Shown here: in pieces, positions 7,968 to 37,481 of the stretch
How positions within the stretch are numbered: position 1 is the stretch's first letter
Layout of the letters: each line of letters starts with the position of its first letter
Source: a virus
Lineage: Duplodnaviria; Heunggongvirae; Uroviricota; Caudoviricetes
Virus record (IMG/VR): IMGVR_UViG_2534681936_000021
Span: 1 to 37,481 of that record
Strand: one strand, 5' to 3'
DNA: 37,481 bases
Notes under the pieces: generated by a model
What the model was told of the DNA's origin: nothing
Seen by the model: the letters and a program-made list of their open reading frames with translations, nothing else
The model's database searches: none
Position numbers and translations under genes: made by a program

Positions 7968-8927
7968 ATGAAAATTTGTATCGATGACGGCTCCACCAAC
8001 ATCAAGCTGGCATGGACTGAGAACGGCGAACGCCGCAACGCCATCAGCCCAAACAGCTTCAAGTCGGAATGGTCTGCGCCGTTCGGTGGCACGCAGCCCG
8101 CGAACTACATGCTTGATGGCGTGCGCTATGGTTTTGATCCGGTCAGCGATCGCTTTGTCCAGACGACCGACACGCAATACCAGTACAGCGATGTGAATGT
8201 CATTGCTATTCATCACGCGCTGGTCAAATCAGGCATCACACCACAGGAAGTGGATGTGGTTGTCACCCTGCCACTGAGCGAATATTTCGACACAAACGCA
8301 CAGCCGGACATGGTCAACATCAACCGCAAAAAAGCGAACGTCATGCGCCCGGTGGAGTACCAGAACGGCGAAGCATTCACTATCCGTAACGTACGGGTTA
8401 TGCCTGAATCCATTCCGGCTGGCTTTAAAGCACTGGCTGACATGAGTCCGTTTGAATCCCTGCTGATTGTGGATTTGGGCGGAACCACGCTGGATGTGGC
8501 AAAGGTTCAGGGGCAACTGGCAGGTATCAGCCAGGTGTTTTGCGATCCACACGTAGGCGTTTCTCTGATGGCCGATGCCGTACTGTCGGTGATGGCCACT
8601 AACGGTATGCGCACCAGTCACCACATCGCCAATACCATTATCGAACGTCGCCATAATGAAGCCTGGCTGCGCCAGCACATCCACAATGACGCGCATTACG
8701 CCAGCCTGATGGCGGTTATTCGTGAAAAGGAAGAAACACTGAAACAACGCGTGATCCGCGCGCTGGCGGGTTTTTCGGGTTACGGGCGGGTGATGGTTGT
8801 CGGTGGAGGGGCGGAGATTGTGGCACCCGCTATCCGCGAAGCCTGCGGAGTTAATGCGACTTTCATCGCGGACGGGGTGCCACAGTTTGCTCTGGTTAAT
8901 GGGCTGTACGCAATGGACAAGGAGTAA
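7968..8927 (+). CDS. parM: ParM/StbA-family actin-like ATPase
   Basis: N-terminus MKICIDDGSTNIKLAW plus YSDVNVIAIHHAL, VMPESIPAGF, LIVDLGGTTLDV and VMVVGGGAE closely parallel plasmid R1 ParM as recalled. Confidence 0.85.
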   Translation: MKICIDDGSTNIKLAWTENGERRNAISPNSFKSEWSAPFGGTQPANYMLDGVRYGFDPVSDRFVQTTDTQYQYSDVNVIAIHHALVKSGITPQEVDVVVTLPLSEYFDTNAQPDMVNINRKKANVMRPVEYQNGEAFTIRNVRVMPESIPAGFKALADMSPFESLLIVDLGGTTLDVAKVQGQLAGISQVFCDPHVGVSLMADAVLSVMATNGMRTSHHIANTIIERRHNEAWLRQHIHNDAHYASLMAVIREKEETLKQRVIRALAGFSGYGRVMVVGGGAEIVAPAIREACGVNATFIADGVPQFALVNGLYAMDKE

Positions 8928-8931
8928 ACCA

Positions 8932-9243
8932 ATGACAACACCAACCAGACGGATAAGTTTCTATCTGAAGCCAGCTGCCGTCAAGAACGAAGGAGAAGCA
9001 TGCGCCTGGCTGGACAGCCTTACACCAGAAGCCCGCAAAAGCGGCCAACGCGTGGCTTTTCTGGCCGGGCTGGCACTTCTGAAGACGAATCCGGCAGAGG
9101 CTTACCGACTGGCCGCATGGGCTGATGATGAGATGTTACCTGTGACACAAATCAGCTCAAAAAAGTTTGAAGCACAGTCTGCACCAGTGGCTAAGATAAC
9201 CAGCCAGATGGCTGGGAATATCCGGGCGTTATTTCCTGAGTAA
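8932..9243 (+). CDS. parR: ParR-like small DNA-binding partner (103 aa)
   Basis: RBS aaggag upstream, 4 nt after the parM stop; N-terminus RRISFYLKP and LAGLALL segment resemble R1 ParR as recalled. Confidence 0.6.
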   Translation: MTTPTRRISFYLKPAAVKNEGEACAWLDSLTPEARKSGQRVAFLAGLALLKTNPAEAYRLAAWADDEMLPVTQISSKKFEAQSAPVAKITSQMAGNIRALFPE

Positions 9244-14789: not shown

Positions 14790-15841
14790 ATGAATCTGGT
14801 GATGTCAGATATTACCCGCAACAAGCTGGGTTGCTATATGGCGCAGCAGGCGTCGCTTAACAATATCCCGGTATCTGCACTGGTATCGCGATTTACCGTG
14901 GAACCCTCGGTGCAGCAGCGTTTTGAAAACGCAGTAAAGGAGAGCACTGAATTTACAAAAAAATTAACGTGTTCGGTGTGACTGACCAGAAAGGCGAAAA
15001 AATCCTCCTGGACACCACCGGGCCGATTGCGCGCACGAATACCAGTTATGACGGCACAAAACGCCGTAACCCGAATAACGTGGTTGATCTGAAAAACCGC
15101 AAATACCAGTGCGAACAGGTGAACTACGACACGTTTATTTCGTATCCGCAGCTTGATGCCTGGGCGGCACACCCTGATTTTCAGTCCCGCGTCAGCACAC
15201 AGATTGCCCGGCAGGTGGCGCTTGACCGCATCATGATCGGTTTCAACGGCACGTCTCACGCGGATGAGTCCAACTTCAGCACTAACAAGCTGCTTCAGGA
15301 CGTTAACGTGGGATGGCTGGAGCACATCAGAACCGACGCCAGCGAGCGCGTTATGAATGATGTAACGCTGACCTCCCGCAACATGGACAACACCGTGGCG
15401 CACGCGGGTAAATATGCGAACGCTGATGCACTGGTACAGGACGCGCGCTCATCCCTGCTGGATGAATGGCACAAGGAAGCTGACGACCTCGTGGTGATTA
15501 TGGGGCGCAACCTGTTTAACTCGCTGCGTCTGCCCGTGCTGAACAGCATCAGCGGCCAGAATCCCAATGCGGAATTACTTGCCGGACAGCTCATCCTGTC
15601 ATCGCGCGCCATTGGCGGGCTGGATGTATTCCTTGCGCCGTTCTTCCCGGATGCAACGATGCTGATCACCTCGTTCAACAACCTGTCAATTTACTGGCAG
15701 AAAGGAACAATGCGTCGCCTGATGAAAGACGAGCCGGAATACAACCGCATTGCCACCTACCAGTCCATCAATGACGCTTATGTCGTTGAAGACTATGGCA
15801 AGTGCGCGATGGTCACTGGCCTGAAGTTCGCCGACAGCTAA
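14790..15841 (+). pseudogene. N: major capsid protein gpN-like, split by a single-base frameshift near the A7 run at 14957-14963
   Basis: Track ORFs 14790-14981 and 14969-15841 together read as one gpN-like protein (FTVEPSV..., KGEKI..., LSIYWQ..., YVVEDYG) if one base is restored near 14960-14970. Confidence 0.75.
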
Positions 15842-22261: not shown

Positions 22262-23892
22262 CAGTGAAATACTACGCCATTCTGACTAATCAGGGCGCAG
22301 CACGACTGGCTAACGCGACGATGCTCGGCAGTAAGCTGAATCTGACGCAAATGGCCGTTGGTGATGCAAATGGTGTGTTACCAACACCAGACCCTGCACA
22401 AACAAAACTGATTAACCAGAAACGCATTGCACCGCTGAATCTTCTGAGTGTTGACCCTAACAATCAGAGCCAGATTATTGCGGAGCAAATCATCCCTGAA
22501 AACGAGGGAGGATTCTGGATCCGTGAGATTGGTCTTTATGATGATGAAGGTGTACTCATTGCGGTGGCAAACTGCCCGGAAACGTACAAACCGCAGTTGC
22601 AGGAAGGCAGTGGACGCACCCAGACTATCCGCATGATTCTGGTTGTCACGAACACCGAAGCCATCACGCTGAAAATCGACCCGTCTGTGGTTCTGGCAAC
22701 CCGCAAATATGTGGATGATAAAATATCAGAGCACGAACAGTCACGACGTCACCCGGACGCCTCGCTGACCGTAAAAGGTTTTACTCAGTTAAGCAGTGCA
22801 ATTAACAGTGAATCAGAAACACTGGCCGCAACACCGAAAGCGGTTAAGGCTGCATATGACCTGGCTAACGAGAAATATACCGCCCAGAACGCCACCACTA
22901 CACAAAAAGGGATTGTTCAGCTCAGTAGCGCCACGAACAGCACGTCTGAAACACTGGCAGCGACACCAAAAGCTGTTAAGGCGGTAATGGATGAAACGAA
23001 CAAGAAAGCACCATTAAACAGCCCGGCACTGACCGGAACGCCAACAACACCAACAGCGCCACAGGGGACTAATAGTACCCAGATCGCAAGCACGGCTTTC
23101 GTTATGGCCGCGATTGCCGCACTTGTAGATTCGTCACCTGATGCACTGAACACGCTGAACGAACTGGCTGCGGCGCTGGGCAATGACCCGAATTTTGCGA
23201 CCACCATGACTAACGCGCTTGCGGGTAAGCAACCGAAGGATGCCACCCTGACGGCGCTGGCGGAGCTTGCTACATCAGCAGATAAACTCCCATATTTTAC
23301 AGGGGCAGATCGTGCCGCGTTAACCGCGTTGACAAGTGTTGGACGTGCCATTCTTGGTAAAACCAGCACTCAGGGAGTTCTTGATTACCTTGGTTTGGGA
23401 GAAGGTTCGGCATTACCCGTTGGTGTGCCTGTTCCGTGGCCTTCCGCCACTCCGCCAACAGGCTGGCTGAAATGCAATGGTGCGGCTTTTTCTGCTGAAG
23501 AATACCCGGAACTGGCAAAGGCTTATCCAACAAATAAATTACCTGATTTACGCGGTGAGTTTATTCGTGGATGGGATGATAGTCGTGGTATCGACAACGG
23601 GCGTGCGCTGCTTTCATCTCAAGGCCATTCACTCAGAGACCACTCACATAACCAGCAGATCTGGACAGGTTCAAATACAACATCGTCAACTATTGGTCAG
23701 GCCGGGAGTTATGCTCCGCTAGCAACTGGAGGGGATGGGGGGATTGCCTATACTGACCGGGAGCCTCAAAGCCTACCTTCAGCAGTAAGAGCTGTCAGCA
23801 CTCGTGGGGTTGCTTCTGACAATGCAGCGAATATTGGCACTGAAACCCGCCCGCGCAACATTGCATTTAACTACATCGTGAGGGCTGCATAA
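22258..23892 (+). CDS. H: tail fibre protein gpH-like; constant N-terminal part fused to variable C-terminus 1
   Basis: 544 aa; internal SETLAATPKAVKA repeats; the left inversion crossover site lies at codon 377-378. Confidence 0.85.
   Translation: MTVKYYAILTNQGAARLANATMLGSKLNLTQMAVGDANGVLPTPDPAQTKLINQKRIAPLNLLSVDPNNQSQIIAEQIIPENEGGFWIREIGLYDDEGVLIAVANCPETYKPQLQEGSGRTQTIRMILVVTNTEAITLKIDPSVVLATRKYVDDKISEHEQSRRHPDASLTVKGFTQLSSAINSESETLAATPKAVKAAYDLANEKYTAQNATTTQKGIVQLSSATNSTSETLAATPKAVKAVMDETNKKAPLNSPALTGTPTTPTAPQGTNSTQIASTAFVMAAIAALVDSSPDALNTLNELAAALGNDPNFATTMTNALAGKQPKDATLTALAELATSADKLPYFTGADRAALTALTSVGRAILGKTSTQGVLDYLGLGEGSALPVGVPVPWPSATPPTGWLKCNGAAFSAEEYPELAKAYPTNKLPDLRGEFIRGWDDSRGIDNGRALLSSQGHSLRDHSHNQQIWTGSNTTSSTIGQAGSYAPLATGGDGGIAYTDREPQSLPSAVRAVSTRGVASDNAANIGTETRPRNIAFNYIVRAA
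22790..22990 (+). repeat. in-frame tandem repeat in the tail fibre (two copies of the SETLAATPKAVKA-containing unit)
   Basis: Repeated peptide in the H translation. Confidence 0.5.
23378..23403. promoter_or_regulatory. left crossover site for the DNA invertase (gix/hix-like, 26 bp: ttcttgattacc-tt-ggtttgggagaa)
   Basis: 12-bp half-sites around a 2-bp core; inner half plus core is the exact reverse complement of 25254-25267. Confidence 0.65.
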
Positions 23893-24494
23893 TGACACAG
23901 GCAAAATTAAACAGTGAATTTATTGCCACAGTAGCGGGTGATATTACCGTCTATAACTATGACAACACGACACGGGAATACATTTCATCATCAACAGAAT
24001 ATCTTGCCGTTGGCGTCGGTATCCCGGCATGTTCTTGTTTAGATGCACCAGTTACACATAAAGCTGGTTATGCAATCTGCCGTTCTGCAGATTTTAACTC
24101 ATGGGAATATGTACCAGACCATCGCGGTGAAATCATCTATAGCACCGAAACAGGAGAATCGAAAGAAATCACAGCTCCGGGTGATTACCCTGAAAATACA
24201 ACCACTATCGCCCCGTTAACGCCATTCGATAAATGGGATGGTGAGAAATGGGTGACGGATACCGAGGCACAGCATAGCGCCGCACTAGACGCGGCAGAAG
24301 CAAAGCGCCAGTCGCTGATTGATGCTGCAATGGCTTCCATCAGTCTGATTCAGATGAAATTACGGGCCGGGCGGAAGCTGACGCAGGCAGAAACCACCCG
24401 ACTTAACGCTGTGCTGGATTACATTGACGCGGTGGAGGCAACAGATACCAGCACCGCGCCTGATGTCATCTGGCCTGAACTGCCGGAGGCGTAG
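23892..24494 (+). CDS. G: tail fibre assembly chaperone gpG-like (copy 1)
   Basis: 200 aa; C-terminal WPELPEA-type tail typical of fibre assembly proteins; follows H. Confidence 0.8.
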   Translation: MTQAKLNSEFIATVAGDITVYNYDNTTREYISSSTEYLAVGVGIPACSCLDAPVTHKAGYAICRSADFNSWEYVPDHRGEIIYSTETGESKEITAPGDYPENTTTIAPLTPFDKWDGEKWVTDTEAQHSAALDAAEAKRQSLIDAAMASISLIQMKLRAGRKLTQAETTRLNAVLDYIDAVEATDTSTAPDVIWPELPEA

Positions 24495-24906
24495 GCCATT
24501 CAATATCTGGCGCACCGGAAGTATCGACCAGTTCCAGTGCGTCCAGATAATCCAGCCACAAATTATATTGCGCCAGTTCCCCACCTTTCAGGCGACCAAT
24601 CGCCGCTTTACCAGGCCATTGCTTACTGTTTATGTATTCGTTGACCTGATTAATCAATTGCTGCTTTTCCAGTTCGGCTGCGGCAATTTGTTCCTCATGA
24701 GTTGGCGGTGGAGTATCAATCCATGCAGGCATTCCGTCGATGACACCTCTGTATTTTCCTTCTGGTGCTTCCTTCATAAATTCGGCGGCAACAGTGTCGT
24801 CAATTTCGATTCCATCACCGGGCCATTCGCCGGATTCCTGATAAGCGATTTTAAGCTCCACAGGGAAAAACGCATTTTTATCGGCACTGAAAATATATTT
24901 CTGCAT
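24466..24906 (-). CDS. tail fibre assembly chaperone, alternative copy (G')
   Basis: 146 aa, convergent with and overlapping G by 29 bp; similar C-terminal motif (DIEWPTPP). Confidence 0.75.
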   Translation of the reverse strand: MQKYIFSADKNAFFPVELKIAYQESGEWPGDGIEIDDTVAAEFMKEAPEGKYRGVIDGMPAWIDTPPPTHEEQIAAAELEKQQLINQVNEYINSKQWPGKAAIGRLKGGELAQYNLWLDYLDALELVDTSGAPDIEWPTPPAVQAR

Positions 24907-24908
24907 TT

Positions 24909-25307
24909 CTACCGTCCTATCGAAATATAACTGAATCTGTATTGCTGTGAGATATCACTGGTTGCCACACGCCACGCTGAATTACTGATATGTTCAAAAT
25001 TTACAGACAAAACCTGCGGGGCAGGATTCGACGGGGCTGACTGAACGGCATCAGACATAACACTGACTGAAACCATCGGCTGATTAGGGAATGGTATAGG
25101 GAAGTGTCCACTGATAAAGCGGGTCGTGTTTCCTGAAAAAGTGCCAAACTGAACAATATATCCACCTGGTAGCCTGAACCATCCCGAACCAGAAGCGAAT
25201 GCTCCCATATCCGGTATCTGATTATCTCCTGTGCCCACATTCCGTTTTGCCGCTTCTCCCAAACCAACGTTTAAGAAAATGCAGAGATTATGGCTAACTG
25301 GCATCAT
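24909..25307 (-). CDS. alternative tail fibre C-terminal segment (Hv'); functional only when fused to the H N-terminus by inversion
   Basis: Frame is continuous with the crossover core at 25265; translation after the core (GLGEAAKRNVG...) parallels H after its core (GLGEGSALPVG...). Confidence 0.6.
   Translation of the reverse strand: MMPVSHNLCIFLNVGLGEAAKRNVGTGDNQIPDMGAFASGSGWFRLPGGYIVQFGTFSGNTTRFISGHFPIPFPNQPMVSVSVMSDAVQSAPSNPAPQVLSVNFEHISNSAWRVATSDISQQYRFSYISIGR
25254..25279. promoter_or_regulatory. right crossover site for the DNA invertase (ttctcccaaacc-aa-cgtttaagaaaa)
   Basis: Inverted partner of 23378-23403; lies 56 bp upstream of the invertase gene. Confidence 0.65.
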
Positions 25308-25334
25308 CCCCGGTTTTTATTCAGGGGATCCATC

Positions 25335-25934
25335 ATGCTTATTGGCTATGTCCGCGTATCAACAAATGACCAGAATACAGAATTGCAGCGTAACGCGCTG
25401 GAGTGCGCAGGATGTGAACTGATTTTTGAAGATAAAATCAGCGGAACGAAATCAGCCAGACCGGGATTGAAAAAACTGATCAGAACGCTATCAGAAGGAG
25501 ATACGCTGGTTGTCTGGAAGCTGGACAGACTGGGCAGAAGTATGAAACACCTGATCACGCTTATTGAGGAATTGCGGGAAAAAGGTGTTAATTTCCGTAG
25601 TCTGACGGACAGCATTGACACATCAACACCCATGGGGCGTTTCTTTTTTCACGTCATGGGGGCTTTAGCCGAAATGGAACGTGAATTAATTGTAGAGCGT
25701 ACACTGGCCGGGCTGGCAGCAGCACGCGCACAAGGACGCATTGGCGGACGTCGCCCGAAGTTGACAAAAGAACAACACGAGCAAATAGCGAGGCTGATTA
25801 AAAACGGTCATGACAGGAAACAACTGGCGATCATTTACGACATCGGCATATCGACGATTTATCGTTATCACCCTGTAGGCGATATACAGGCTGAAGAAAC
25901 AACCAGGCAGACTCAGGAAAATGAAAACCGCTAA
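25335..25934 (+). CDS. serine DNA invertase (Gin/Hin/Pin/Cin family)
   Basis: N-terminus MLIGYVRVSTNDQNTELQ with the catalytic serine context; resolvase-type fold and C-terminal helix-turn-helix (GISTIYRY). Confidence 0.9.
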   Translation: MLIGYVRVSTNDQNTELQRNALECAGCELIFEDKISGTKSARPGLKKLIRTLSEGDTLVVWKLDRLGRSMKHLITLIEELREKGVNFRSLTDSIDTSTPMGRFFFHVMGALAEMERELIVERTLAGLAAARAQGRIGGRRPKLTKEQHEQIARLIKNGHDRKQLAIIYDIGISTIYRYHPVGDIQAEETTRQTQENENR

Positions 25935-25953
25935 TCTGACCATTAGCGGTTTT
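25924..25953. terminator. hairpin between the convergent invertase and U genes (aaaaccgctaat / attagcggtttt)
   Basis: 12-bp perfect stem spanning the invertase stop; short T-run on both sides. Confidence 0.45.
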
Positions 25954-25960
25954 GCGTTAA

Positions 25961-26455
25961 TCAAAACAGCCCTTTAACGGAGCTGGCCGCGCTGTTAAGG
26001 GATGATGTGACCTTATCTTTGAAGCCGGACAGCATATCACTGAACGATGAGGATTGCAGGCGCTCCCGCAAATCCTCATCACAGCGTTCAAGGGTCAGTG
26101 AAAATTCTATCTTTTTCGCCTTACCGTAGCGATCAAACTCGGAACGGGTCGTATTCGTTCCAGTCAGGACATACATGCCGTAAATCTGCCCGACGCCATC
26201 AATCAAAGGCCAGGGTCGTCCTGTATAAGCCTGCGTGGTCAGCAGCGACAGCGACACTTCGCCACCTGTAATTTCAGGATAAAGCACACCAGAAAGAACG
26301 ATGCGATCATCACCTGCACCGATATACTGCCAGCTTGCTGAACGGTTAATGCGTTCATTTTTCACATGCCGCCAGCTTTTGTTTTGCTGTAACTGCTGAT
26401 GCGGCAGCGTGCGCAGCTCAAAAACAAACATGCCGTAGATCATCATCATGGCCAT
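25961..26455 (-). CDS. U: tail protein gpU-like
   Basis: 164 aa, immediately downstream of the tape measure gene on the same strand. Confidence 0.8.
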   Translation of the reverse strand: MAMMMIYGMFVFELRTLPHQQLQQNKSWRHVKNERINRSASWQYIGAGDDRIVLSGVLYPEITGGEVSLSLLTTQAYTGRPWPLIDGVGQIYGMYVLTGTNTTRSEFDRYGKAKKIEFSLTLERCDEDLRERLQSSSFSDMLSGFKDKVTSSLNSAASSVKGLF

Positions 26456-26461
26456 GACTCC

Positions 26462-29305
26462 TCAATCTTTATCGTAAAAACTGCCACGCCCGGCACGGGC
26501 GCGCCGTTCCATTTCTGCCCTGACCATTTCACCGACCAGTTTCGCCAGTTCGCGGGGATTCTGCGTAACAACGTTATGCAGATGAACATGAATTTCACCA
26601 CCAAATTCGGAGGCAACAGGCTCCCGGTTACGGGAAGTTACAGGAACTGATGCCACTGGAGATCGTATAGCCTCCGCCACCGGGCGGGAGCTGGCCGCAA
26701 CAACAGTGACCAGCGCCGGAGGCAGCGGAGCCGGGACCACGGGTGTGATATTAATTGCGGGGGCAGGCTTACTGACCTGCGCAATCTTCCGCTCCTGCCA
26801 CTCCCCACGAACAGCAAGTGCCCGGGGCAGGTTTTTAAAGACAATATCGCCGGGGCCAATGCGTTTTTTCGTCTCCTCAACCAGCTTACCTGTGTTATCA
26901 GCAATTTTGCTGAGTCTGCGCAGCGTACCGGTATTGCTGTCTGTGAGCGGTTTATTGTCTTTGGGGTTATCACCTCCGGTGCCATTGCCATTTTCCACAG
27001 GCTTCGGCGGATTGATTTTCGCCAGGTCCCCCTGAAGCAAGGCAACCTTGTCCTGAAGAATGGCCGCACGCTGTGCGTCTTCGATTTTCTTGCGCGCCCT
27101 TTCCGCTTCATCCGGAAGCACACCAAGCTTTTCAAGTATCCACGCCAGCGTATCCAGCAACATTTTTGCAGGTGTCAGAACAAGTTGTAACGCACCGCCA
27201 AGAACGTTACCGAATATCTCGCCAGCACTGGTACATTTATCCAGAGTTTCCTTGCTGGACTCCATCGGTGACAGCAGCGATTTAAACCAGTTAAACACCT
27301 GGCTGATCCCACTCCCGATTGCGTCAAAAACAGGACTAAACCGTTCAAAGGTTTCGCGCAACGGGGTCAGCCTTTCCATAATCCCGCTGAACACCCCGGC
27401 AAAAAATGCCCTGATGGGATCCCAGTATTTCCAGATAAGAACGGCAGCTCCGGCAAGCGCAGCCACGATAAGACCAACCGGACTGAACAACGCCCCGATA
27501 GCGCCTCCCAGCAAAGAAACGGAACCCGTCACCATTCCCCATAGTGCTGGCAGAACCCTGACAGCATTCATTGATCCGGTCAGGAGGGAAAAACCAAGAC
27601 GCAGTTTTGCCAGCGGGCCAGCAAGCACACCAATAGCCAGCGACAACGAGCCAACCGTTGCAGTCATTGCCAGCAGTGCACCGCCTGCAATCAGTAGCTG
27701 GCGCGTCAGTGCGGGATGGGCCTGCGCCAGCGCCGTCACCTTTGATACCACACGCGTGAGCCACTGCGTGACAGAACGCAGCGGACCGTCAATCAGATCT
27801 GCAATGCGGATGCGCAACCCTTCCCATGCACTGCTGAGTGATTTCAGATCGCCGTCAAGGTTGTTGGCCATAACCTTTGCCGTGCGTTCAGCCTCACCGC
27901 GCGCACCTTCAAGTTCTTTTCTCAGTTTGGGTAAGGAGCCGTCACCTGCCGCATCAACGAGGGCCATAAATGATGTGAAAGCCTCTTCTCCGGCAATGTC
28001 CTTAAAGAACGATACCCGGTCAACTTCCCCGTATTTGCGGGTAGCTTTATAAAGGTCAGCCAGCACATCCTCCATCGGACGCATTTTGCCCCCGGCATCC
28101 GAGACAGACACGCCAAGCTCTTTCAGCGCCTCTGCTGCCGCCTTTGGCGGTGATGCCAGACGAGCCAGGCTGGCACGCATTGCCGTCCCGGCATCACTCC
28201 CCCTGATACCCATATTCGCCAGCACGCCTGCCATCGCTGCGGCCTGCTCCAGCGATATTCCCAGCTTACCCGCCACCGGACCTGCATATTTCATGGTTTC
28301 ACCCAGTGCGCGAAGGTCAGTGTTGGTACGGGTAAACGCTGCGGTGAGTGTGTCGCCGACCCGGTCCATCTGGTCAGCAGAAAGACCGAACTGCGTCAGA
28401 ATATTTGAGCCAATATCCGCCGTCTCACCGAGGTCCATACCGCCAGCCGTTGCCATGCTCAGTACGCCAGGGAGCGCAGCCTGAATGGCCTGTGGTGTGA
28501 AGCCGGCCATTGCAAGAAATGCCTGCCCACTGGCGGCATCGCCTGCGGTGAACTGCGTTTCAGAGCCAAGTTTTAACGCCTGCTCACGCAGCGCCTTAAA
28601 CTGCGGGCTGTTTTTGTCGATTCGCGTCAGTGCCTGAACGCGGGACATCTCTTTCCCGAACCCGATCGCAGGCTGCAAAAAACGCCCGGCAGCATAGCCG
28701 CCCGCAGCTGCCGCACCAATTGCCAGCGCACCACCTGTTTTCAGTTTTCCCGCTGTTTCCTGCGCGCGCGAATACCGCTCACGCGCCCGCGTTACACGCG
28801 CAAGCGCCTGCCGTTCGCGTTCAAGCTGGTTGTTGTACTGTTCGGTGCGTCTGATGGCCTGCTGGATGGTGTTATCGCTGCCTGTCAGGGAAATGCCGTG
28901 GCGTTTCAGCTCTCCGCCAAGCTCCCGCATTTTCTGAATTTCCCGTGTGCGCGATTCATTCAGGCGTTCAAGCCGGGTGCTTAACTGCTGCATCAGCTTT
29001 TGTTGTTTTTCGCTGAGCACTGTACCCGTGCGTTGTAACTGATTAAGGGCGTTAAGCTGGCGTCGTGCTTTCACGATACCCGCATCCGCTTTACTGACAG
29101 CGTCGCGGGCGCGCTCAAATGAACGCGCCTGACGCTCGAGATTTTTGATCGCCCCCTGCGTTCGCTGGATGGAGTCACCAAACTGCCCCATCAGGCGGCG
29201 GGCGTTTTCGGCAGGCCGGGTCAGCCTGTCAACGGCGCTGAAAGCGACCCGGATATCAAGAGTCTTCATTGTCTGCATTCCCGCTGCGAAGTGCCGCCCG
29301 CTCAC
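26462..29305 (-). CDS. T: tail tape measure protein gpT-like
   Basis: 947 aa, coiled-coil N-terminal half and glycine/alanine-rich hydrophobic central region. Confidence 0.85.
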   Translation of the reverse strand: MSGRHFAAGMQTMKTLDIRVAFSAVDRLTRPAENARRLMGQFGDSIQRTQGAIKNLERQARSFERARDAVSKADAGIVKARRQLNALNQLQRTGTVLSEKQQKLMQQLSTRLERLNESRTREIQKMRELGGELKRHGISLTGSDNTIQQAIRRTEQYNNQLERERQALARVTRARERYSRAQETAGKLKTGGALAIGAAAAGGYAAGRFLQPAIGFGKEMSRVQALTRIDKNSPQFKALREQALKLGSETQFTAGDAASGQAFLAMAGFTPQAIQAALPGVLSMATAGGMDLGETADIGSNILTQFGLSADQMDRVGDTLTAAFTRTNTDLRALGETMKYAGPVAGKLGISLEQAAAMAGVLANMGIRGSDAGTAMRASLARLASPPKAAAEALKELGVSVSDAGGKMRPMEDVLADLYKATRKYGEVDRVSFFKDIAGEEAFTSFMALVDAAGDGSLPKLRKELEGARGEAERTAKVMANNLDGDLKSLSSAWEGLRIRIADLIDGPLRSVTQWLTRVVSKVTALAQAHPALTRQLLIAGGALLAMTATVGSLSLAIGVLAGPLAKLRLGFSLLTGSMNAVRVLPALWGMVTGSVSLLGGAIGALFSPVGLIVAALAGAAVLIWKYWDPIRAFFAGVFSGIMERLTPLRETFERFSPVFDAIGSGISQVFNWFKSLLSPMESSKETLDKCTSAGEIFGNVLGGALQLVLTPAKMLLDTLAWILEKLGVLPDEAERARKKIEDAQRAAILQDKVALLQGDLAKINPPKPVENGNGTGGDNPKDNKPLTDSNTGTLRRLSKIADNTGKLVEETKKRIGPGDIVFKNLPRALAVRGEWQERKIAQVSKPAPAINITPVVPAPLPPALVTVVAASSRPVAEAIRSPVASVPVTSRNREPVASEFGGEIHVHLHNVVTQNPRELAKLVGEMVRAEMERRARAGRGSFYDKD

Positions 29306-29474
29306 GCCAGCTAACCACTTCGCCGGGCGTCATCATGAAGATTTCGGCGGGCGACCAGTTAAAAATAACGGCAATATCTGCCACAAAGTCTTCTATGTGC
29401 TCAAAGCACACAACCGTGATCAGGCTTCCGTCGCCTGTTCGTTCTTCCCGCCAGAGTCCGCACCGCTCAAAAAA
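29256..29474 (-). CDS. E' extension, expressed as an E+E' fusion by programmed -1 frameshift
   Basis: ORF in the -1 frame continues from the slippery site and overlaps the T start. Confidence 0.6.
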   Translation of the reverse strand, partial: FFERCGLWREERTGDGSLITVVCFEHIEDFVADIAVIFNWSPAEIFMMTPGEVVSWRERAALRSGNADNEDS

Positions 29475-29785
29475 TTTACGGCAACCACACATAACTGAAT
29501 AAAGTCACGGGATGCTATTTTTTTGATCGTCACTTCATCCAGTCGCGGTGATGTCACGCGTGACAGCAGCGTAAACATGGATTCCGCTTTCAGATTCAGC
29601 ACATCAGACAGCGACAAATCTCGCAGAGATCCAGCCTGCTCAATAGCTCCGGTGATCTCCACATACGTGATTTTTTCGCCGCCTCGCTCAATTGGTTGGG
29701 TAAGTTTTACGCCACGCTCACTGGTTTCTTTCACAGTGTCAGCAACGACCGTGTTTTCGGTATCGATGTTTTTCGTCTCTTTCAT
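29420..29785 (-). CDS. E: tail assembly chaperone gpE-like
   Basis: 121 aa; RBS aaggag upstream; lies between the tube and tape measure genes. Confidence 0.8.
   Translation of the reverse strand: MKETKNIDTENTVVADTVKETSERGVKLTQPIERGGEKITYVEITGAIEQAGSLRDLSLSDVLNLKAESMFTLLSRVTSPRLDEVTIKKIASRDFIQLCVVAVNFLSGADSGGKNEQATEA
29468..29474 (-). other. slippery heptamer T_TTT_TTG for the programmed -1 frameshift (E to E+E')
   Basis: TTTTTTG in the correct register near the 3' end of E (zero-frame codons TTT TTG). Confidence 0.65.
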
Positions 29786-29839
29786 CAGGAAACTCCTTTC
29801 AGTCAGAGGCGACGCACTGCGCCGCCTGCATATTACTTA

Positions 29840-30352
29840 TCAGCCAAGCCCGAGCGCGGAACGGATGCGATCGGGCACAATGTCCTTGCCGTCCTTCCGG
29901 TAAATGAAGTTCAGCAGGTCAATCTCCCACAACGGGCGATCGTTAACACTCAGCTTGTAGTAGGTGTTTTTAATGGCGTAAGTGTGTGATGTGGCTTCGC
30001 CCTGTTTGGCTTCCCCCATATCAATTTCCGTCACACGTCCGCGCATTTCGACTTCATACAGGTCGCTTTCTGCATCGGTGTAATATTCACCCGCAAAACG
30101 CAGCAGCGTGCCGTCAATCGTGCCGCCATACTTAAGGAACAGCTCACGAACTGCGCCCCCCATGACAAAGCTCGCATCAAGCGCGGAGTCGTCCAGACCG
30201 AGATCAATACTTACCGCCCCCATCATGCCACCACCCCGGTAGCTGTCGGTTTTGCGCGTCAGCTTAGGCAGAGTGACGGACGTCACCTTACCCACTTCGT
30301 TTTCACCATCCACAAACAGCGTAAAAAAGCGAAGATGTTTTGGCACAGCCAT
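29840..30352 (-). CDS. FII: tail tube protein gpFII-like
   Basis: 170 aa directly downstream of the sheath gene. Confidence 0.85.
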   Translation of the reverse strand: MAVPKHLRFFTLFVDGENEVGKVTSVTLPKLTRKTDSYRGGGMMGAVSIDLGLDDSALDASFVMGGAVRELFLKYGGTIDGTLLRFAGEYYTDAESDLYEVEMRGRVTEIDMGEAKQGEATSHTYAIKNTYYKLSVNDRPLWEIDLLNFIYRKDGKDIVPDRIRSALGLG

Positions 30353-31536
30353 CAGGCACCTCCCAGCACCGCAAATGCGGGACCAAAGAATTCATCAGTA
30401 AACGTCTGGTAAAGCTCCATGTCTTCCAGTGGCGGAACGGGCGTATATTTGTAGCGAATACGCACACGCCCCTGACGTAAATCCGTGGTGCCGTTATCCA
30501 CCACGTCATACCAGCACGACGCCCCAATCAGTTTCCCGGCAGTAACCAGTGAATCCAGTTTTGCCCTGATGGCACTGATAACATCTTTCACGTTCGCAGG
30601 CGTCAGTGGACTGTCGATGGTTTCAAACTGCGCTTCCGCAATTGAATCAGCCAGCACCTGTGCGGTTCGGGTATACACCTCAAAGATGTAGGCGTTCGTT
30701 TCCGGTGTGCGGTTGCCCCAGAAGCGGAACCCGTTGCGACGAATAATGGTCGTGATTTCTTTGTTGTTGAGGCTGTTGGCATCACTGTCTTCGGCCTGCA
30801 ACGACCAGAACACATGCCTCGACATCCCCAGCACATTCTTAACCGGAACGTTGGAGAGTGATTTGTGCCATCCCTGCTCATGGTCAATGTACGCACGAAG
30901 GCCGCACGCATAGGCAGGCGCGGGGAACGTTTCGTTTTTGCCACTTTTCGGGTTGTAGGCGATGAAGTCCGGCCATAAGAGCATCACCTCACGTTCGTTG
31001 AATTTCTGGCGGTAGGTAATCGCATCAGCCATCGTGTCACAGCCATGACATGAGGCATACACAAACGCGCGCAGTTTACCCGCAATCACGCACAGGGATT
31101 TTGTCACCGCCTCCGTATCCAGCTCCGGCGCGGCCAGAATACGCGGACGGTATCCGATGCTTTCATCCTGCTCTGCAACAAGCAGCGCATACATCCCCGT
31201 ATAGCTGCCGTCAGATTCAGAACCACCGATAACCAGTTGATCCTGCGTTTTTCCGTCTTCTTCTTTGTGTTCAGCCACGCGAACGACGATCACCTTTGTG
31301 CTCACCTGGTCTGCGATGGCCTTAAGCGCACGATAAAGCGTCCCCGTTGTTCCGCATTTTCCCAGCACGTCATTGACGCGGGTCAGCAGTGTGGGCTTGT
31401 TCAGCGGGAACAGCTCCGCGTCCGCATCATCCGCCGTTGCCACGATACCGATAACACTGGAATCAACATCATTAATCGCTGTTACCAGGTCGGTACTTTC
31501 CGTAACACGGGCACCATGAAAACGAGTTTCACTCAT
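30352..31536 (-). CDS. FI: contractile tail sheath protein gpFI-like
   Basis: 394 aa; segments FPLNKP, KLRAF, WPDF, DHEQGWHKSLSNV, RRNGFRFWGNRT, YTRTAQV and YTPVPPLE resemble P2 FI as recalled. Confidence 0.9.
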   Translation of the reverse strand: MSETRFHGARVTESTDLVTAINDVDSSVIGIVATADDADAELFPLNKPTLLTRVNDVLGKCGTTGTLYRALKAIADQVSTKVIVVRVAEHKEEDGKTQDQLVIGGSESDGSYTGMYALLVAEQDESIGYRPRILAAPELDTEAVTKSLCVIAGKLRAFVYASCHGCDTMADAITYRQKFNEREVMLLWPDFIAYNPKSGKNETFPAPAYACGLRAYIDHEQGWHKSLSNVPVKNVLGMSRHVFWSLQAEDSDANSLNNKEITTIIRRNGFRFWGNRTPETNAYIFEVYTRTAQVLADSIAEAQFETIDSPLTPANVKDVISAIRAKLDSLVTAGKLIGASCWYDVVDNGTTDLRQGRVRIRYKYTPVPPLEDMELYQTFTDEFFGPAFAVLGGA

Positions 31537-31693
31537 AGCTTCAGCCCCTTGTATCCGTTAAATGATTCGGCAACAATCATCACCCACCACGCGCGTAATC
31601 TCACTCCTGCGCCGTTCTCCCGCCACGGCGACAACAAAAAGCAGTAACCCCCTCCGCACGCACATGCGACCATGCCGCACAGGGAGGGAACAG

Positions 31694-32802
31694 ATGACCG
31701 ACACCACCATGCAATTGCTCAGTCAGGGCACAGACCCCGTGAAAATGCCGGATTTTGATATTCTCGCGGAGGGTAAAACGCTGTCAGGCGTGGCAGAGCG
31801 CCTGATGAGCCTGTCACTGACCGACAACCGGGGATTTGAAGCGGACCAGCTCACCATCACGCTGGATGATGCGGATGGTCAGTTGCAGCTACCGCCACGG
31901 GGCGCGCGCCTGACGGTTCTCATTGGCTGGAAAGGAGAACCGCTGACAGAAAAAGGCACTTACATTGTTGATGAAATCGCTCACGAAGGACCGCCGGACA
32001 GGCTGACTGTTTCAGCCAGAAGCGCAGATTTTCGGGATGAATTTAACGTTAAACGTGAGGTGTCCTGGCATGATGTGACCGTTGAGCGTGTGGTATCCGC
32101 CATCGCTCATCGGTACGGTCTGAAACCGCAAATCAGCGAAATGCTGATGGATATCGAAATCGACCACGCCGACCAGACCGAAGAAAGCGACATGTCCTTC
32201 CTTACGCGCATGGCGGAAATGCTGGGCGCAATCACCACGGTAAAAAGCGGCAATCTGTTATTCATCATGCCTGGTGGTGGCGTGAACGCACAGGGCCAGC
32301 CGTTGCCCTCGTTCGCCATTACACGCAGCAGTGGCGATCGCCATCAGTTCCGCATTGCTGACCGCGAGGCGTATACGGGTGTACGCGCCTACTGGCTTGA
32401 TCTTAATTACGGGAAAAAGAAAAAGTCAGCGTGAAACGCCGCAAACCGCCAAAACCCAAAAAGGAGAAAAGCAGCAGCCGTGAAGGTGATTATATGGAAG
32501 GCGCGGAAGGCAATGTGTTTGTGTTACGCAAGACTTATCAGAACGAGCAGGCAGCAAGACGCGCAGCGGCGGCAAAGTGGCAGCAGCTACAACGCGGAGC
32601 CGCATCATTCTCCATCATGCTGGCACGCGGACGCGCAGAACTCTACCCCGAAATGCATGGCACGGTAACAGGCTTTAAAAGCGAGATTGATAATCAGGAC
32701 TGGATTATTGCAAAAGCCGAGCACACCATTGATAACAGCGGCTTTACCACACAGCTTGAGCTTGAGGCAAAAATCCCGGAATGGATAGCAGAAACAGAGT
32801 GA
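31694..32802 (+). pseudogene. D: late control / tail protein gpD-like, split by a single-base frameshift in the gggaaaaagaaaaag run (about 32411-32430)
   Basis: Track ORFs ending at 32434 and starting at 32431 together give a gpD-like protein (...SWHDVT..., ...GDRHQF..., ...QDWIIAKAEH...SGFTTQLELE...). Confidence 0.75.
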
Positions 32803-32870
32803 GCAACTTAGACATATTAGCTCAGACTTAAACTGGCAAGTTTACAGTATAGAATTAAACATAAACGACG

Positions 32871-32899
32871 GTCCGCTCCGTGTCAGAAGCGGACTTTGT
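32871..32899. terminator. hairpin between convergent D and the 340-aa gene (gtccgct / agcggac followed by TTTGTC)
   Basis: 7-bp stem flanked by A-rich and T-rich sequence. Confidence 0.45.
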
Positions 32900-32922
32900 C
32901 ATCCCTATGTAAGGTTGATTGC

Positions 32923-33945
32923 TTAATACGCATTTAATTTAAATTTGTATTTGCCTTCTATGTAATGGATAAATTCAATTATGCTTTTTTCTATCGCATC
33001 TAATATATGAATATATCCATCCCGATTTAAGGTCCTATCCAACTCAAAGTGATGAACTATCCCATGTCTATATTGTATGATTTCAGAAATTCGATTCTCA
33101 AGAAAATCAACTGATTTTCCAATTCTTTTTTTCTTATAAAGAATCGCTCTCACATCTATATCCAGCCACTCTTTATATGCTTTGTTTAGGTGGGTTAAGT
33201 TTTGAAAAGTGTAATTTCTTGCAATAACACTTTCTATTGAAATATTTCCTTTCTCTATCTCAAGCAGAATATCAAAATCAACTTTTTGCTTATACGATGT
33301 TCTTTTTGCTATTGCGAAAGGATCGTACTTTATAAGTATTTGAAAAGCTCTAGAGAAAAAATATTCAAACATAGCAACCGCAAAAGGTACTAATCCATTA
33401 TATATAACTCTACTGGGATCCATACATTGCATGTAATCAAAGTATTCGGATAAGCCGCCATCTTCCGGTAGGTTTAATTTAATAGAAGGTTCAGGTAAGG
33501 CATGTTTAACAGCGGAAATCTCATGATGGACATGATTAAATATTGAAGAAATGCCACGACTGATCGGACTACTAGAATCCTTCCATAGAGGAGCGTACCT
33601 ATTTTTCCCATAATCACCTATAAGTGTTCCACCAAAAAGACTCCGTGCGCCTTTTAGAACATCATTAAGCATTTTTACATCATGCCAACTAGCGCTATAT
33701 AAATTACGCACATGCAATGCCCATTTATTACCAGATATGTGTAGTTCGTCATTTGAAACAGGATATATATCAGCCGAAACTCCATCTGTAGATTTGAAGT
33801 CCGTATCATCAAACCAAGAGTAATTCAACGTTCCTTGGGGCCATTCCCACAAATGTTTACACCTTTTAAAACCTAAATTTTCAAGGTAATTTTTAAGTTC
33901 GTTTCTAGTTGCTTTTTTAGGGTACAGCGTTATATCTCTTCCCAT
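32923..33945 (-). CDS. hypothetical 340-aa protein in an AT-rich insertion; C-terminal Rx4HH motif (candidate HEPN-like abortive-infection protein)
   Basis: Long clean ORF in markedly AT-rich DNA between D and ogr; motif YRHGIVHHFE near the C-terminus. Confidence 0.6.
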   Translation of the reverse strand: MGRDITLYPKKATRNELKNYLENLGFKRCKHLWEWPQGTLNYSWFDDTDFKSTDGVSADIYPVSNDELHISGNKWALHVRNLYSASWHDVKMLNDVLKGARSLFGGTLIGDYGKNRYAPLWKDSSSPISRGISSIFNHVHHEISAVKHALPEPSIKLNLPEDGGLSEYFDYMQCMDPSRVIYNGLVPFAVAMFEYFFSRAFQILIKYDPFAIAKRTSYKQKVDFDILLEIEKGNISIESVIARNYTFQNLTHLNKAYKEWLDIDVRAILYKKKRIGKSVDFLENRISEIIQYRHGIVHHFELDRTLNRDGYIHILDAIEKSIIEFIHYIEGKYKFKLNAY

Positions 33946-34136
33946 GCTTTATTCACCTGATATACAATATTTTAAATTTTAACTATTATGAACGTATGAA
34001 TTTTCACATTGGATGTATGGAAGTTCAACAACTATTGAAAGTTCAATTTTCACTCTTCGCACAGAGCGAGCTGTTAGTTGGAATTAGGGATCGTACAATC
34101 TAGAATAGCGGCAACACCACGTTAAGGGAGGTCGCT

Positions 34137-34397
34137 ATGTTCCGTTGTCCGCTTTGTGGCGCATCTGCCCGTATCCGCACAAGTCGTCCGGAAAATGATT
34201 CAAACACCGTGCGGCAAAAGTATTACCAGTGTAACAATCTGGAATGCGGCGTATGCTTCTCAACACTGGAAGCTTTCCATAAATTCACATCGAAACACGC
34301 CTCCGGCGTTCACTCTTCAGAAGGTATCCCGTGGCATGAGCTACCAGCTTCACACAGGGGAAACAATCAGATGAGTTTGCCTTTACCTCAGAATTAA
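34137..34397 (+). CDS. ogr: Ogr/Delta-family zinc-finger late transcription activator
   Basis: MFRCPLCGA...CNNLEC zinc-finger pattern typical of P2 Ogr; RBS agggagg upstream. Confidence 0.8.
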   Translation: MFRCPLCGASARIRTSRPENDSNTVRQKYYQCNNLECGVCFSTLEAFHKFTSKHASGVHSSEGIPWHELPASHRGNNQMSLPLPQN

Positions 34398-34588
34398 CAA
34401 GCAGAATTGCCGGAGTAACAAAAAAGCGATAGATTACGCGCGGGTGCCTTTCGGCTGATGGTCGGAGGGAATACCCGAAGGCCAGATGTGGAAAGGCCCC
34501 GGAAAACACTTTTGTTTAACCGAGGCCCTAACCGTCTACCCTAAGCAAGTGAAAGGTTAGCGCCTCTCCGGAAAAGGAGCAAGTGCTA

Positions 34589-34729
34589 TGTCGCAAAAAT
34601 CGCTTACAGCCATCACGTTCTGCGTGACGGTAATCCTCATCATCTGGATGTTGCACGGTTCGCTGTGCGAAATACGGATGAGTTTCTGGGGAGCGGAGTT
34701 TGCGGCGTTCTTACAGTGTAAGCAGTAAG
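34589..34729 (+). CDS. Hok/Gef-family type I toxin (46 aa), below the ORF-track size cutoff
   Basis: MSQKSLTAITFCVTVILIIWMLHGSLCEIR...AEFAAFL: transmembrane helix followed by the Hok-like SLCEIR and E(F/V)AAF motifs; RBS aaggag 8 nt upstream. Confidence 0.6.
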
Positions 34730-34738
34730 GAAACCGCG

Positions 34739-34760
34739 ACGGGGGAGTAATCCCCCGTCA
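34739..34760 (+). other. stable 9-bp hairpin just 3' of the hok-like ORF (gacggggga-gtaa-tcccccgtc)
   Basis: Perfect inverted repeat 10 nt after the stop; consistent with a hok mRNA 3' fold. Confidence 0.5.
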
Positions 34761-34989
34761 ATCGGTTGCCAGGGTAAGGTCGATAAGGCACCCTATCTCA
34801 CGGCTCTAAATGCAAAAATTCCATGAAACTGTGGGATTTTTGCATCACTACTGATACAGATCTGACCTTCTTTATGTCTCACTCTATACCAGCTAATCAA
34901 TTGACACTTATCAATAAAAAAAAATCTGATAAAATCAAAATGTTTTGTAACAAATATCAACTCGTATTGATCCAAAGGAGGCGGATTAC

Positions 34990-35322
34990 ATGGCATTAAT
35001 CAAATGTCCTGAATGCCAGAAAGAGGTGAGCGATTCAGCATTGTATTGCCCTGCTTGCGGTAAACAAATAAAAAAACTTAAGCGTTCATTTTTTGGAAAG
35101 CTCATTAAGTGGATTTTTATATTATTTAATATTTTTATGATCTATACGCTTTTAGTTGGACTGGGAGGCACTAGTGAAATAATAAATAATGCTACATCCG
35201 ATGCCGAAAAAGCCGGTGCAGTTATTGGTACAGGCTTAGGTTTAATTACCATTGGAAGTTTATGGGTTATTGGCGATATCATTATCGGAATTTTAGTGTT
35301 TCTTACTAAACCAAAAGGATAA
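34990..35322 (+). CDS. zinc-ribbon membrane protein (110 aa)
   Basis: N-terminal CPEC...CPAC zinc ribbon followed by two hydrophobic helices; AT-rich context. Confidence 0.5.
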   Translation: MALIKCPECQKEVSDSALYCPACGKQIKKLKRSFFGKLIKWIFILFNIFMIYTLLVGLGGTSEIINNATSDAEKAGAVIGTGLGLITIGSLWVIGDIIIGILVFLTKPKG

Positions 35323-35326
35323 CAAA

Positions 35327-36218
35327 ATGAAAAATATAATTTTTCTATAGGTGCATCATTTATATCAATTGGTGTACTGCCTGTTCACGCAGCAACTGAA
35401 CATAATAACTTCAATGCAGTACTCCAGTGCCGAGCAATAGAAAATAATAAAGACAGACTTTCTTGTTACGATAAGTCAATACAACCGACTCGAACGAAAG
35501 TTGCTGAAAAATTCGAAAGCAGAGATCAATGCCCTGATGAGAAAGATGATGACAGACGTTTATCTTGTTATGATCGTTTTTTTCTCCAACATTTACTCCA
35601 TCTGTAAACTCAAAATCTAAAACGGAAAAGCCAGTAACAACAGAGGCTCAGCAACCAAATCTTTCTGAGATATCTAAATGCCGAGCAGAAAATGATAAAG
35701 AAGCCAGACTAAACTGCTACGATAAACTATTCCCACAGGATAAAGCTGTTCAAGCTGAATCAAAATTAGAGAAAGCCACAGATGTAGGAAAATGGCACAC
35801 ATCCATTACTACATCGCCAATTGATGATTCGAAAAATGTAATTTTATCGTTAGAAAGTGATGATTATATCAGAACTCCATTTGGAGAAGCGGTTACTCCT
35901 ACTCTGTTTATAGCTTGCCGAGAAAAGAAAACCGAAGTATTTCTTGGTTGGGATGTATATTTAGGCCTTGAACAAACCAGCATGCTTTATCGTCTTGATA
36001 AACAGAAAGCAGTTGAGCGAAACTGGCTAGTATCTACAGATACAAAGGCTGTTTTTTATAAAGGTAATGACATTGATTTCATCCGAAAACTAGCCAACTC
36101 AAACAAAATGTATACAAAAATAACTCCTTATAATGAGAGCCCTGTAAGTGCAACTTTCAATTTAAACGGCCTGTCAAACGCGCTAAAACCACTTCAAGCT
36201 GCTTGTAACTGGAAATAG
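35327..36218 (+). pseudogene. frameshifted gene for a secreted protein with three Cys-x9-10-Cys-Tyr-Asp repeats
   Basis: Signal-peptide-like start (MKNIIF...); frame breaks at T-runs near 35340 and 35577-35583; an ATG-less open frame continues to 36218. Confidence 0.45.
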
Positions 36219-36245
36219 CATAAATCATGTGGCTTAGCCACAATC

Positions 36246-36289
36246 ACAGATAACACAAAGCCCGTGGAAACGGGCTTTGTGTTATCTGT
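36246..36289. other. 19-bp perfect inverted repeat with 6-nt loop (acagataacacaaagcccg / cgggctttgtgttatctgt)
   Basis: Seen directly; lies between the upstream pseudogene and the candidate attR. Confidence 0.55.
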
Positions 36290-36299
36290 AACTCGAAAA

Positions 36300-36319
36300 T
36301 GTGGTCACTACGTGGACAC
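36300..36319. repeat. candidate attR core (tgtggtcactacgtggacac)
   Basis: 17 of 20 identity in direct orientation with 10-29 at the int end. Confidence 0.35.
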
Positions 36320-36485
36320 GTGCTGATATAAATCCTTTTATATCAATAAATTAAATCATCATTTTTTTCATCAACAAGGATTTTCACGTTTGTGTTACCT
36401 GTATGAGACGAGAGTTAACCGGACAAGTGTGCCATAATCTCGCGGCCAGGCATACTTGCGAAGATTTCAGGTATAAGGATACGTA

Positions 36486-37481
36486 ATGATACAACCTATT
36501 TCCGGCCCTCCTCCTGGGCAACCACCAGGTCAGGGAGATAACCTGCCGTCTGGCGCGGGCAATCAGCCTTTATCCAGTCAGCAACGTACTTCGCTGGAAA
36601 GCTTAATGACGAAAGTGACCTCACTGACGCAACAGCAAAGAGCAGAACTGTGGGCGGGTATCAGGCACGATATTGGTCTGTCGGGAGATTCACCGCTGCT
36701 TTCGCGTCACTTCCCTGCCGCTGAGCATAATCTGGCGCAACGTCTGCTGGCCGCGCAAAAAAGCCATTCTGCCCGCCAGCTTTTAGCGCAATTAGGGGAG
36801 TATTTACGTCTGGGGAATAATCGTCAGGCGGTCACGGATTATATCCGTCATAACTTTGGTCAGACGCCGCTGAATCAGCTCTCACCGGAGCAATTAAAAA
36901 CCATTCTCACCCTGTTGCAGGAAGGGAAGATGGTTATTCCGCAACCGCAGCAGCGCGAGGCGACCGATCGTCCTCTATTACCGGCGGAGCACAATGCGCT
37001 CAAACAGCTGGTGACCAAACTTGCGGCGGCAACGGGGGAGCCCAGCAAACAGATCTGGCAATCGATGCTGGAACTTTCCGGGGTGAAAGATGGCGAGTTA
37101 ATTCCAGCGAAACTGTTTAACCATCTGGTGACCTGGCTGCAGGCGCGTCAGACGCTAAGCCAGCAAAATACGCCGACGCTGGAATCACTACAAATGACGC
37201 TAAAACAACCTTTAGATGCCAGTGAACTGGCGGCGTTATCGGCATATATCCAGCAAAAATATGGCCTTTCTGCGCAATCATCGCTTTCTTCTGCCCAGGC
37301 CGAGGATATTCTTAATCAGCTTTATCAACGGCGGGTTAAAGGGATTGATCCGCGTGATATGCAACCGCTGCTTAATCCTTTTCCACCGATGATGGACACG
37401 TTGCAAAATATGGCAACGCGTCCCGCGCTGTGGATACTGTTAGTCGCGATTATCCTGATGCTGGTCTGGCTGGTTCGTTAA
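36486..37481 (+). CDS. flk: Flk-like flagellar regulator with C-terminal membrane anchor (host gene)
   Basis: Pro/Gln-rich N-terminus MIQPISGPPPGQPPGQ and C-terminal hydrophobic anchor ALWILLVAIILMLVWLVR; recognised from memory of enterobacterial Flk. Confidence 0.55.
   Translation: MIQPISGPPPGQPPGQGDNLPSGAGNQPLSSQQRTSLESLMTKVTSLTQQQRAELWAGIRHDIGLSGDSPLLSRHFPAAEHNLAQRLLAAQKSHSARQLLAQLGEYLRLGNNRQAVTDYIRHNFGQTPLNQLSPEQLKTILTLLQEGKMVIPQPQQREATDRPLLPAEHNALKQLVTKLAAATGEPSKQIWQSMLELSGVKDGELIPAKLFNHLVTWLQARQTLSQQNTPTLESLQMTLKQPLDASELAALSAYIQQKYGLSAQSSLSSAQAEDILNQLYQRRVKGIDPRDMQPLLNPFPPMMDTLQNMATRPALWILLVAIILMLVWLVR

Follow-up and report, generated by a model that had tools for sequence, protein, structure and literature searches.

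The stretch of DNA analysed here, referred to as the window throughout, is 37,481 nucleotides long and holds a P2-family prophage, whose integrase lies at the left end, beside pdxB; flk occupies the right end. The order of the late genes is that of P88-like phages (Xuanwuvirus, Peduoviridae). The tail region, in which a gpD-like gene is interrupted, is laid out as follows.

26462-31536, - strand: tape measure, E/E', tube and sheath genes; the gpD-like gene comes next on the + strand, and then a cargo gene and ogr.
31694-32434, + strand: N-terminal part of the tail/baseplate-hub gene D, ending in a premature TGA that results from the frameshift; it matches PF05954, and residues 1-244 equal those of the intact 369-amino-acid D of finished E. 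coli DEC5A and of FDAARGOS_946 (see below).
32414-32425, + strand: AAAAAGAAAAAG tract, one A short; relatives have AAAAAGAAAAAAG, as seen in alignments to phages and complete E. coli genomes.
32425-32802, + strand: C-terminal part of D in the -1 frame (32431-32802 in the list of ORFs); it matches PF05954 and is identical to the C-terminus of intact D.

Gene D starts at the ATG at 31694 and is read for 246 codons before reaching a stop, the TGA at 32432-32434. The shift is a deletion of one nucleotide, and hence the downstream part lies in the -1 frame, where it extends to 32802 and comprises 123 amino acids if read from the GTG at 32431 or 125 codons if read from the GTC at 32425. The frame breaks at GGGAAAAAGAAAAAG (32411-32425), in a tract made up of A5 (32414-32418), G (32419), a second A5 (32420-32424) and G (32425), the codons across the junction being TAC GGG AAA AAG AAA AAG TCA GCG TGA. 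A preliminary description of this DNA had claimed that a single-base frameshift splits a gpD-like tail gene in a lysine-codon A run, leaving 247 N-terminal and about 120 C-terminal amino acids in different frames. The frameshift is confirmed by translation, by the PF05954 matches and by the alignments, and the frames do differ, though the N-terminal part is 246 amino acids followed by a stop rather than 247.

The two pieces cover adjoining parts of PF05954, the first matching profile positions 48-207 with 29.7 bits and the second positions 218-304 with 28.0 bits. Each piece alone is slightly under the cut-off of 30.1 bits, which is the Pfam gathering score, while the rejoined protein of 369 amino acids scores 62.9 bits; against PHROG 52 'tail protein' the rejoined protein gives an E-value of 4e-165. 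Since the pieces match consecutive parts of the profile and the rejoined protein scores so much higher, we read them as one gene broken by a single-base deletion and not as two ORFs arising by chance.

D is a known gene, a P2-type gpD (PF05954, Phage_GPD, the tail baseplate hub), in a known kind of prophage. Its DNA is 97-98% identical to that of P88, P88_4B11 and 500465-2, and its neighbours are of the same kind as in these phages: sheath, tube, E/E', tape measure and U lie on the opposite strand, as in the P2-type tail cluster, and ogr lies downstream. Where the window differs from the P88-like phages, and from the finished host genome, is that these carry D as one ORF of 366-369 amino acids, whereas in the window the ORF is broken by the one-nucleotide deletion. 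In the alignment the three phages read GGGAAAAAGAAAAAAGTC and the window reads GGGAAAAAGAAAAAGTC, so that the second run is short by one A (A6 to A5). Across the relatives the sequence is GGGAAAAAGAAAAAAG, with one A more, and D is one ORF of 369 amino acids. The preliminary description had proposed comparison with intact D genes of close relatives, and when this was done with P88, P88_4B11, 500465-2 and two complete E. coli genomes exactly one A was found to be missing from the window.

Positions 22431-37481 of the window are 100% identical to AIFQ01000020.1, a contig of the draft assembly GCA_000249495.2 of E. coli O55:H7 DEC5A. The capsid region of the window is likewise 100% identical to this contig, the identity covering the two stretches that were compared. 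The exact products of the split gene, of 246 and 123 amino acids, are recorded as the adjacent proteins EHV23785.1 and EHV23786.1 of 'Escherichia coli DEC5A', and it is from the names of its proteins that AIFQ01 was assigned to this strain. Because of the identity to the contig and the adjacent proteins named for DEC5A, we take the window to belong to the draft genome of DEC5A, an O55:H7 strain. A finished chromosome of the same strain, CP038394, aligns across the whole 37,481-base window, and in this alignment the two differ at just three sites.

14957-14963, + strand: A7 in the draft and A8 in the finished genome, in the major capsid gene.
32420-32424, + strand: A5 in the draft and A6 in the finished genome, in gene D.
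36267, + strand: GGAAA in the draft and GAAAA in the finished genome.

With A6, D of CP038394 translates as one protein of 369 amino acids, and with A8 its major capsid gene is whole. The single uninterrupted ORF of about 369 amino acids, absent from the window where there are ORFs of 246 and 123 amino acids in different frames, is therefore present in the finished genome of the same strain. The independently sequenced FDAARGOS_946 matches finished DEC5A at all three sites, and P88, P88_4B11 and 500465-2 match it at the site in D. FDAARGOS_946 and DEC5A are public genomes of the same ST, ST 7444 (PMC9413875, the O55:H7 closed-genome paper). Each of the three differences is a shorter A run in the draft. 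Both indels sit in runs of at least 6 bases, a class that accounts for about 1.1% of the region (417 of 37,483 bases). As a control, a strain-specific T7 run at 35577-35583, which is T8 in FDAARGOS_946, agrees between the draft and finished DEC5A.

The third site has a feature of its own. Position 36267, which is G in the draft and A in both finished genomes, falls in the loop of a perfect terminator-like hairpin, AAAGCCCGTG(G/A)AAACGGGCTTT, downstream of the VasI-like gene, and this hairpin is probably a terminator. The change takes one base from the A run and adds one to the neighbouring G run, at the boundary between the two.

It is very likely that the split of D is a homopolymer-length sequencing error in the draft assembly and not a matter of prophage biology; the split is present in the sequence as given and almost certainly not in the organism. 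The preliminary description had left two alternatives, a real second inactivating lesion in an essential late gene or a homopolymer sequencing error. The latter is favoured by the A6 and the intact 369-amino-acid D of finished DEC5A, and the former loses ground to the same intact gene. Resequencing with D in frame, which the description had named as what would refute its claim, is in effect what CP038394 provides, with its A6 and its D of 369 amino acids.

The converse, that the draft is correct and the finished DEC5A genome wrong at these sites, would need two over-calls, independent of each other and both returning the gene concerned precisely to its ancestral frame. It would need the third change as well, and all of these match FDAARGOS_946 and, at D, the phage relatives. 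Long-read assemblies do also make homopolymer errors, and the platform of CP038394 is not given in PMC9413875, but we regard this reading as highly improbable. That the draft contains two under-calls is far more likely than that the finished genome contains two frame-restoring over-calls, and the pattern of changes therefore points to the draft as the assembly in error.

The preliminary description had also counted the break in D as a second lesion, and the other one does exist.

14790-15841, + strand: major capsid gene (P2 gpN family), split into ORFs of 63 and 290 amino acids at the A7 run at 14957-14963; the run is A8 in the finished genome of the same strain.

Relatives have A8 at this run too, and in the explanation that we favour the capsid split is a homopolymer error of the same kind as the split in D. 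The exact A7 form over 85 nucleotides was not found in complete E. coli genomes (0 of 208 records). A run of A7 or A9 does occur at this place in other prophages of many NCBI draft assemblies, and the capsid run may be a genuine slippage hotspot as well.

The allele with A5 in D is rare among complete genomes. The relevant stretch of D is present in about 1,128 complete E. coli genomes, of which 1-2 have the short allele: the exact A5 49-mer is found in KSC9 only, and EC04 carries it with a SNP. Exact matches in complete-genome records number 96 for the A6 form (over 84 nucleotides) and 0 for the A5 form (over 83 nucleotides). In KSC9 four further genes within 5 kb are frameshifted, and those flagged include the genes for the sheath and a methyltransferase and the chromosomal flk. 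Among IMG/VR contigs the A6 form is present on at least 120 and the A5 form on 5.

The truncated D of 246 amino acids is called on 165 contigs in a large collection to which drafts and raw-read assemblies also contribute. The split into 246 and 123 amino acids recurs in different, unrelated prophages integrated at serS, tamB and pdxB. Most of these loci come from short drafts or from assemblies of raw reads, and further homopolymer deletions private to the locus, such as a C6 to C5 change in the tube gene, are present in several. When all loci that had been fetched were compared, the sheath, tube or ogr gene was broken in 13 of 30 loci with A5 and in 2 of 126 loci with A6 (Fisher p = 3e-9). 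The A5 contigs L006, L009, L011, L014 and EC04 have no other frameshift within 4-5 kb. The A5 allele turns up repeatedly in unrelated backgrounds, is accompanied by other frameshifts and is all but missing from finished genomes, which is the behaviour of a systematic miscall rather than of an inherited mutation. That A5 might be an inherited clade marker was considered and rejected, as it is found in unrelated prophages at different integration sites and is almost absent from finished genomes.

Against this background we can consider whether a slipped-strand mutation really arose in the DEC5A culture behind the draft, such that D was inactivated and, together with the capsid frameshift, the prophage is defective and decaying. 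A runs are natural slippage hotspots, NCBI drafts show capsid alleles with A7 and A9 in other prophages, and a truncated D is called on 165 contigs. The VasI/TagO-like cargo gene of this prophage, moreover, has real homopolymer frameshifts that are common to independent assemblies, so this lineage of prophages does undergo real changes of run length, and the draft and finished DEC5A sequences may come from different subcultures. These last two points, like the capsid alleles and the A5 contigs free of other frameshifts, count against a sequencing error. The D lesion, however, is not reproduced in independent assemblies, finished DEC5A and FDAARGOS_946 both having A6, whereas the T5 and T7 lesions of the VasI/TagO-like gene are; the latter look real, unlike that in D. 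The finished genome of the same strain and the closest relative are both intact in D and in the capsid gene. If two cultures of one strain differed at three sites in 37 kb, hundreds of differences would be expected across the genome, which is implausible, and that all three shorten A runs resembles a measurement bias. The near absence of A5 from complete genomes and its strong tie to assemblies with other frameshifts weigh in the same direction, and a real mutation of this kind is in our view unlikely.

If the A5 were real, some full-length D might still be made by -1 ribosomal slippage of tRNA-Lys on G_AAA_AAG. In E. coli, ribosomes are prone to shift at the motifs A_AAG and AAA_AAG, for example in dnaX and IS elements, where sites of the A_AAA_AAG type are used for programmed -1 frameshifting, and in D an AAA_AAG is positioned exactly at the change of frame. 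The zero frame reads GGG AAA AAG AAA AAG, and, judged from the sequence, slipping back by one base at the second AAA_AAG would produce YGKKKKVSVKRR..., which restores exactly the wild-type protein with no change of amino acid. G_AAA_AAG occurs twice in the zero frame; re-pairing in the A site, from AAG to AAA, would be good, and that in the P site, from AAA to GAA, non-canonical. The heptamer differs from the canonical one in having G as its first base. No stimulatory RNA structure was found in the 80 nucleotides downstream (MFE -10.9 kcal/mol, z = +1.86), 197 of 200 shuffled sequences folding at least as well. Nor is the two-ORF layout conserved, D being a single ORF in the IMG/VR contigs with the A6 form and in nearly all complete genomes. 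Slippage also requires a real A5, which the finished genome contradicts. The preliminary description had given ribosomal frameshifting a low probability, and with a heptamer that is not canonical, no downstream structure and no conservation of the split we agree, and consider it extremely improbable. Were it to operate on a real A5, the recurrent one-base deletion would reduce, and not abolish, expression of the tail hub in P88-like prophages.

Transcriptional slippage, which requires about 9 or more A, was also considered for D and rejected, as the runs there are just 5 A long.

A genuine, conserved programmed frameshift does belong to this tail cluster, at T_TTT_TTG in E/E', which we take to be the slippery sequence of P2 E/E'.

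29474-29468, - strand: T_TTT_TTG in the zero frame of gpE, in the E/E' tail-chaperone genes (ORFs 29420-29785 and 29256-29492), with a -1 frame ORF that matches PF06528 (GpE).

This arrangement is found in all relatives examined and lies 3 kb from the site in D, from which it differs in being conserved.

Returning to a homopolymer error as the origin of the split, it would seem likely that one A was under-called in the tract AAAAAGAAAAAAG of the draft, and that this produced a false split of D. In the true prophage, which is P88-like (Xuanwuvirus, P2-family) and integrated between pdxB and flk of E. coli O55:H7 DEC5A, D would then be a single ORF of 369 amino acids encoding a gpD-type baseplate hub. 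The DEC draft collection was presumably sequenced at least partly by pyrosequencing. Homopolymer miscalls are a known class of artefact in flow-based and long-read sequencing, and the loss of a single base from an A run in D is of this form. So are the second under-call and the boundary miscall, which shorten A runs in the same 37 kb and, with the first, are contradicted at all three sites by the finished sequence, and so is the recurrence of A5 in assemblies with other homopolymer frameshifts. The cause is read here from the pattern of changes.

Taken at face value, the draft would describe a prophage with two inactivated essential late genes, for the capsid and the tail hub, and would lead to wrong calls of pseudogenes and of a defective or cryptic prophage. 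In public drafts and raw-read assemblies, false frameshifts would arise repeatedly at the tract AAAAAGAAAAAAG in D of P88-like prophages, and both annotators and predictors of prophage intactness should be suspicious of this split. It raises no new biological question, and its value is as a warning in quality control.

D is also called in another shortened form. On many complete E. coli genomes the NCBI annotation gives it as a 'contractile injection system protein, VgrG/Pvc8 family' of 266 amino acids that starts at an internal Met, examples being 33064-33864 of L005 and 5673-6473 of L004, which correspond to about 32003-32802 of the window. On the other strand the same annotation places a small partial pseudogene named 'hypothetical protein'. 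In these genomes the ORF of 369 amino acids is intact over its full length, and the 266-amino-acid call is an annotation quirk and not a lesion.

Outside the late genes already described, the prophage carries the following genes.

7968-9243: plasmid-type partition genes (ParM/StbA and a stability protein).
About 24424-25934: recombinase of the resolvase/invertase family (PF00239), adjoining tail-fibre genes, oppositely oriented tail-fibre-assembly genes and a gp53-like fragment.
32923-33945, - strand: cargo gene of 340 amino acids between D and ogr, with a sub-threshold HEPN match.
About 34590-34730: toxin gene of the Hok/Gef family, downstream of ogr.
35327-36220: VasI/TagO-like cargo gene, a pseudogene (PF11319; 297 amino acids in intact homologues), with T runs at 35340-35344 and 35577-35583.

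In the VasI/TagO-like gene the run at 35340-35344 is T5 in the draft, in finished DEC5A and in FDAARGOS_946, and T6 in the intact copy of DEC14D. The run at 35577-35583 is T7 in both DEC5A assemblies and T8 in FDAARGOS_946 and in the intact copies.

The 340-amino-acid cargo protein has a weak match to PF18735, RiboL-PSP-HEPN (E = 1.2e-4; 22.5 bits against a cut-off of 28.4), and PADLOC gave no match for its gene. In related prophages the slot between D and ogr is taken by a GmrSD-like gene (PF03235), by a gene for a PIN_4 protein of 500 amino acids or by one for a protein of 384 amino acids. The interval looks like a variable hotspot, possibly one related to defence. Directly downstream of ogr/hok, related prophages have genes for RES-domain proteins or methyltransferases. 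The surroundings of the recombinase suggest an invertible tail-fibre segment that determines host range, of the Gin/Cin/Min type.
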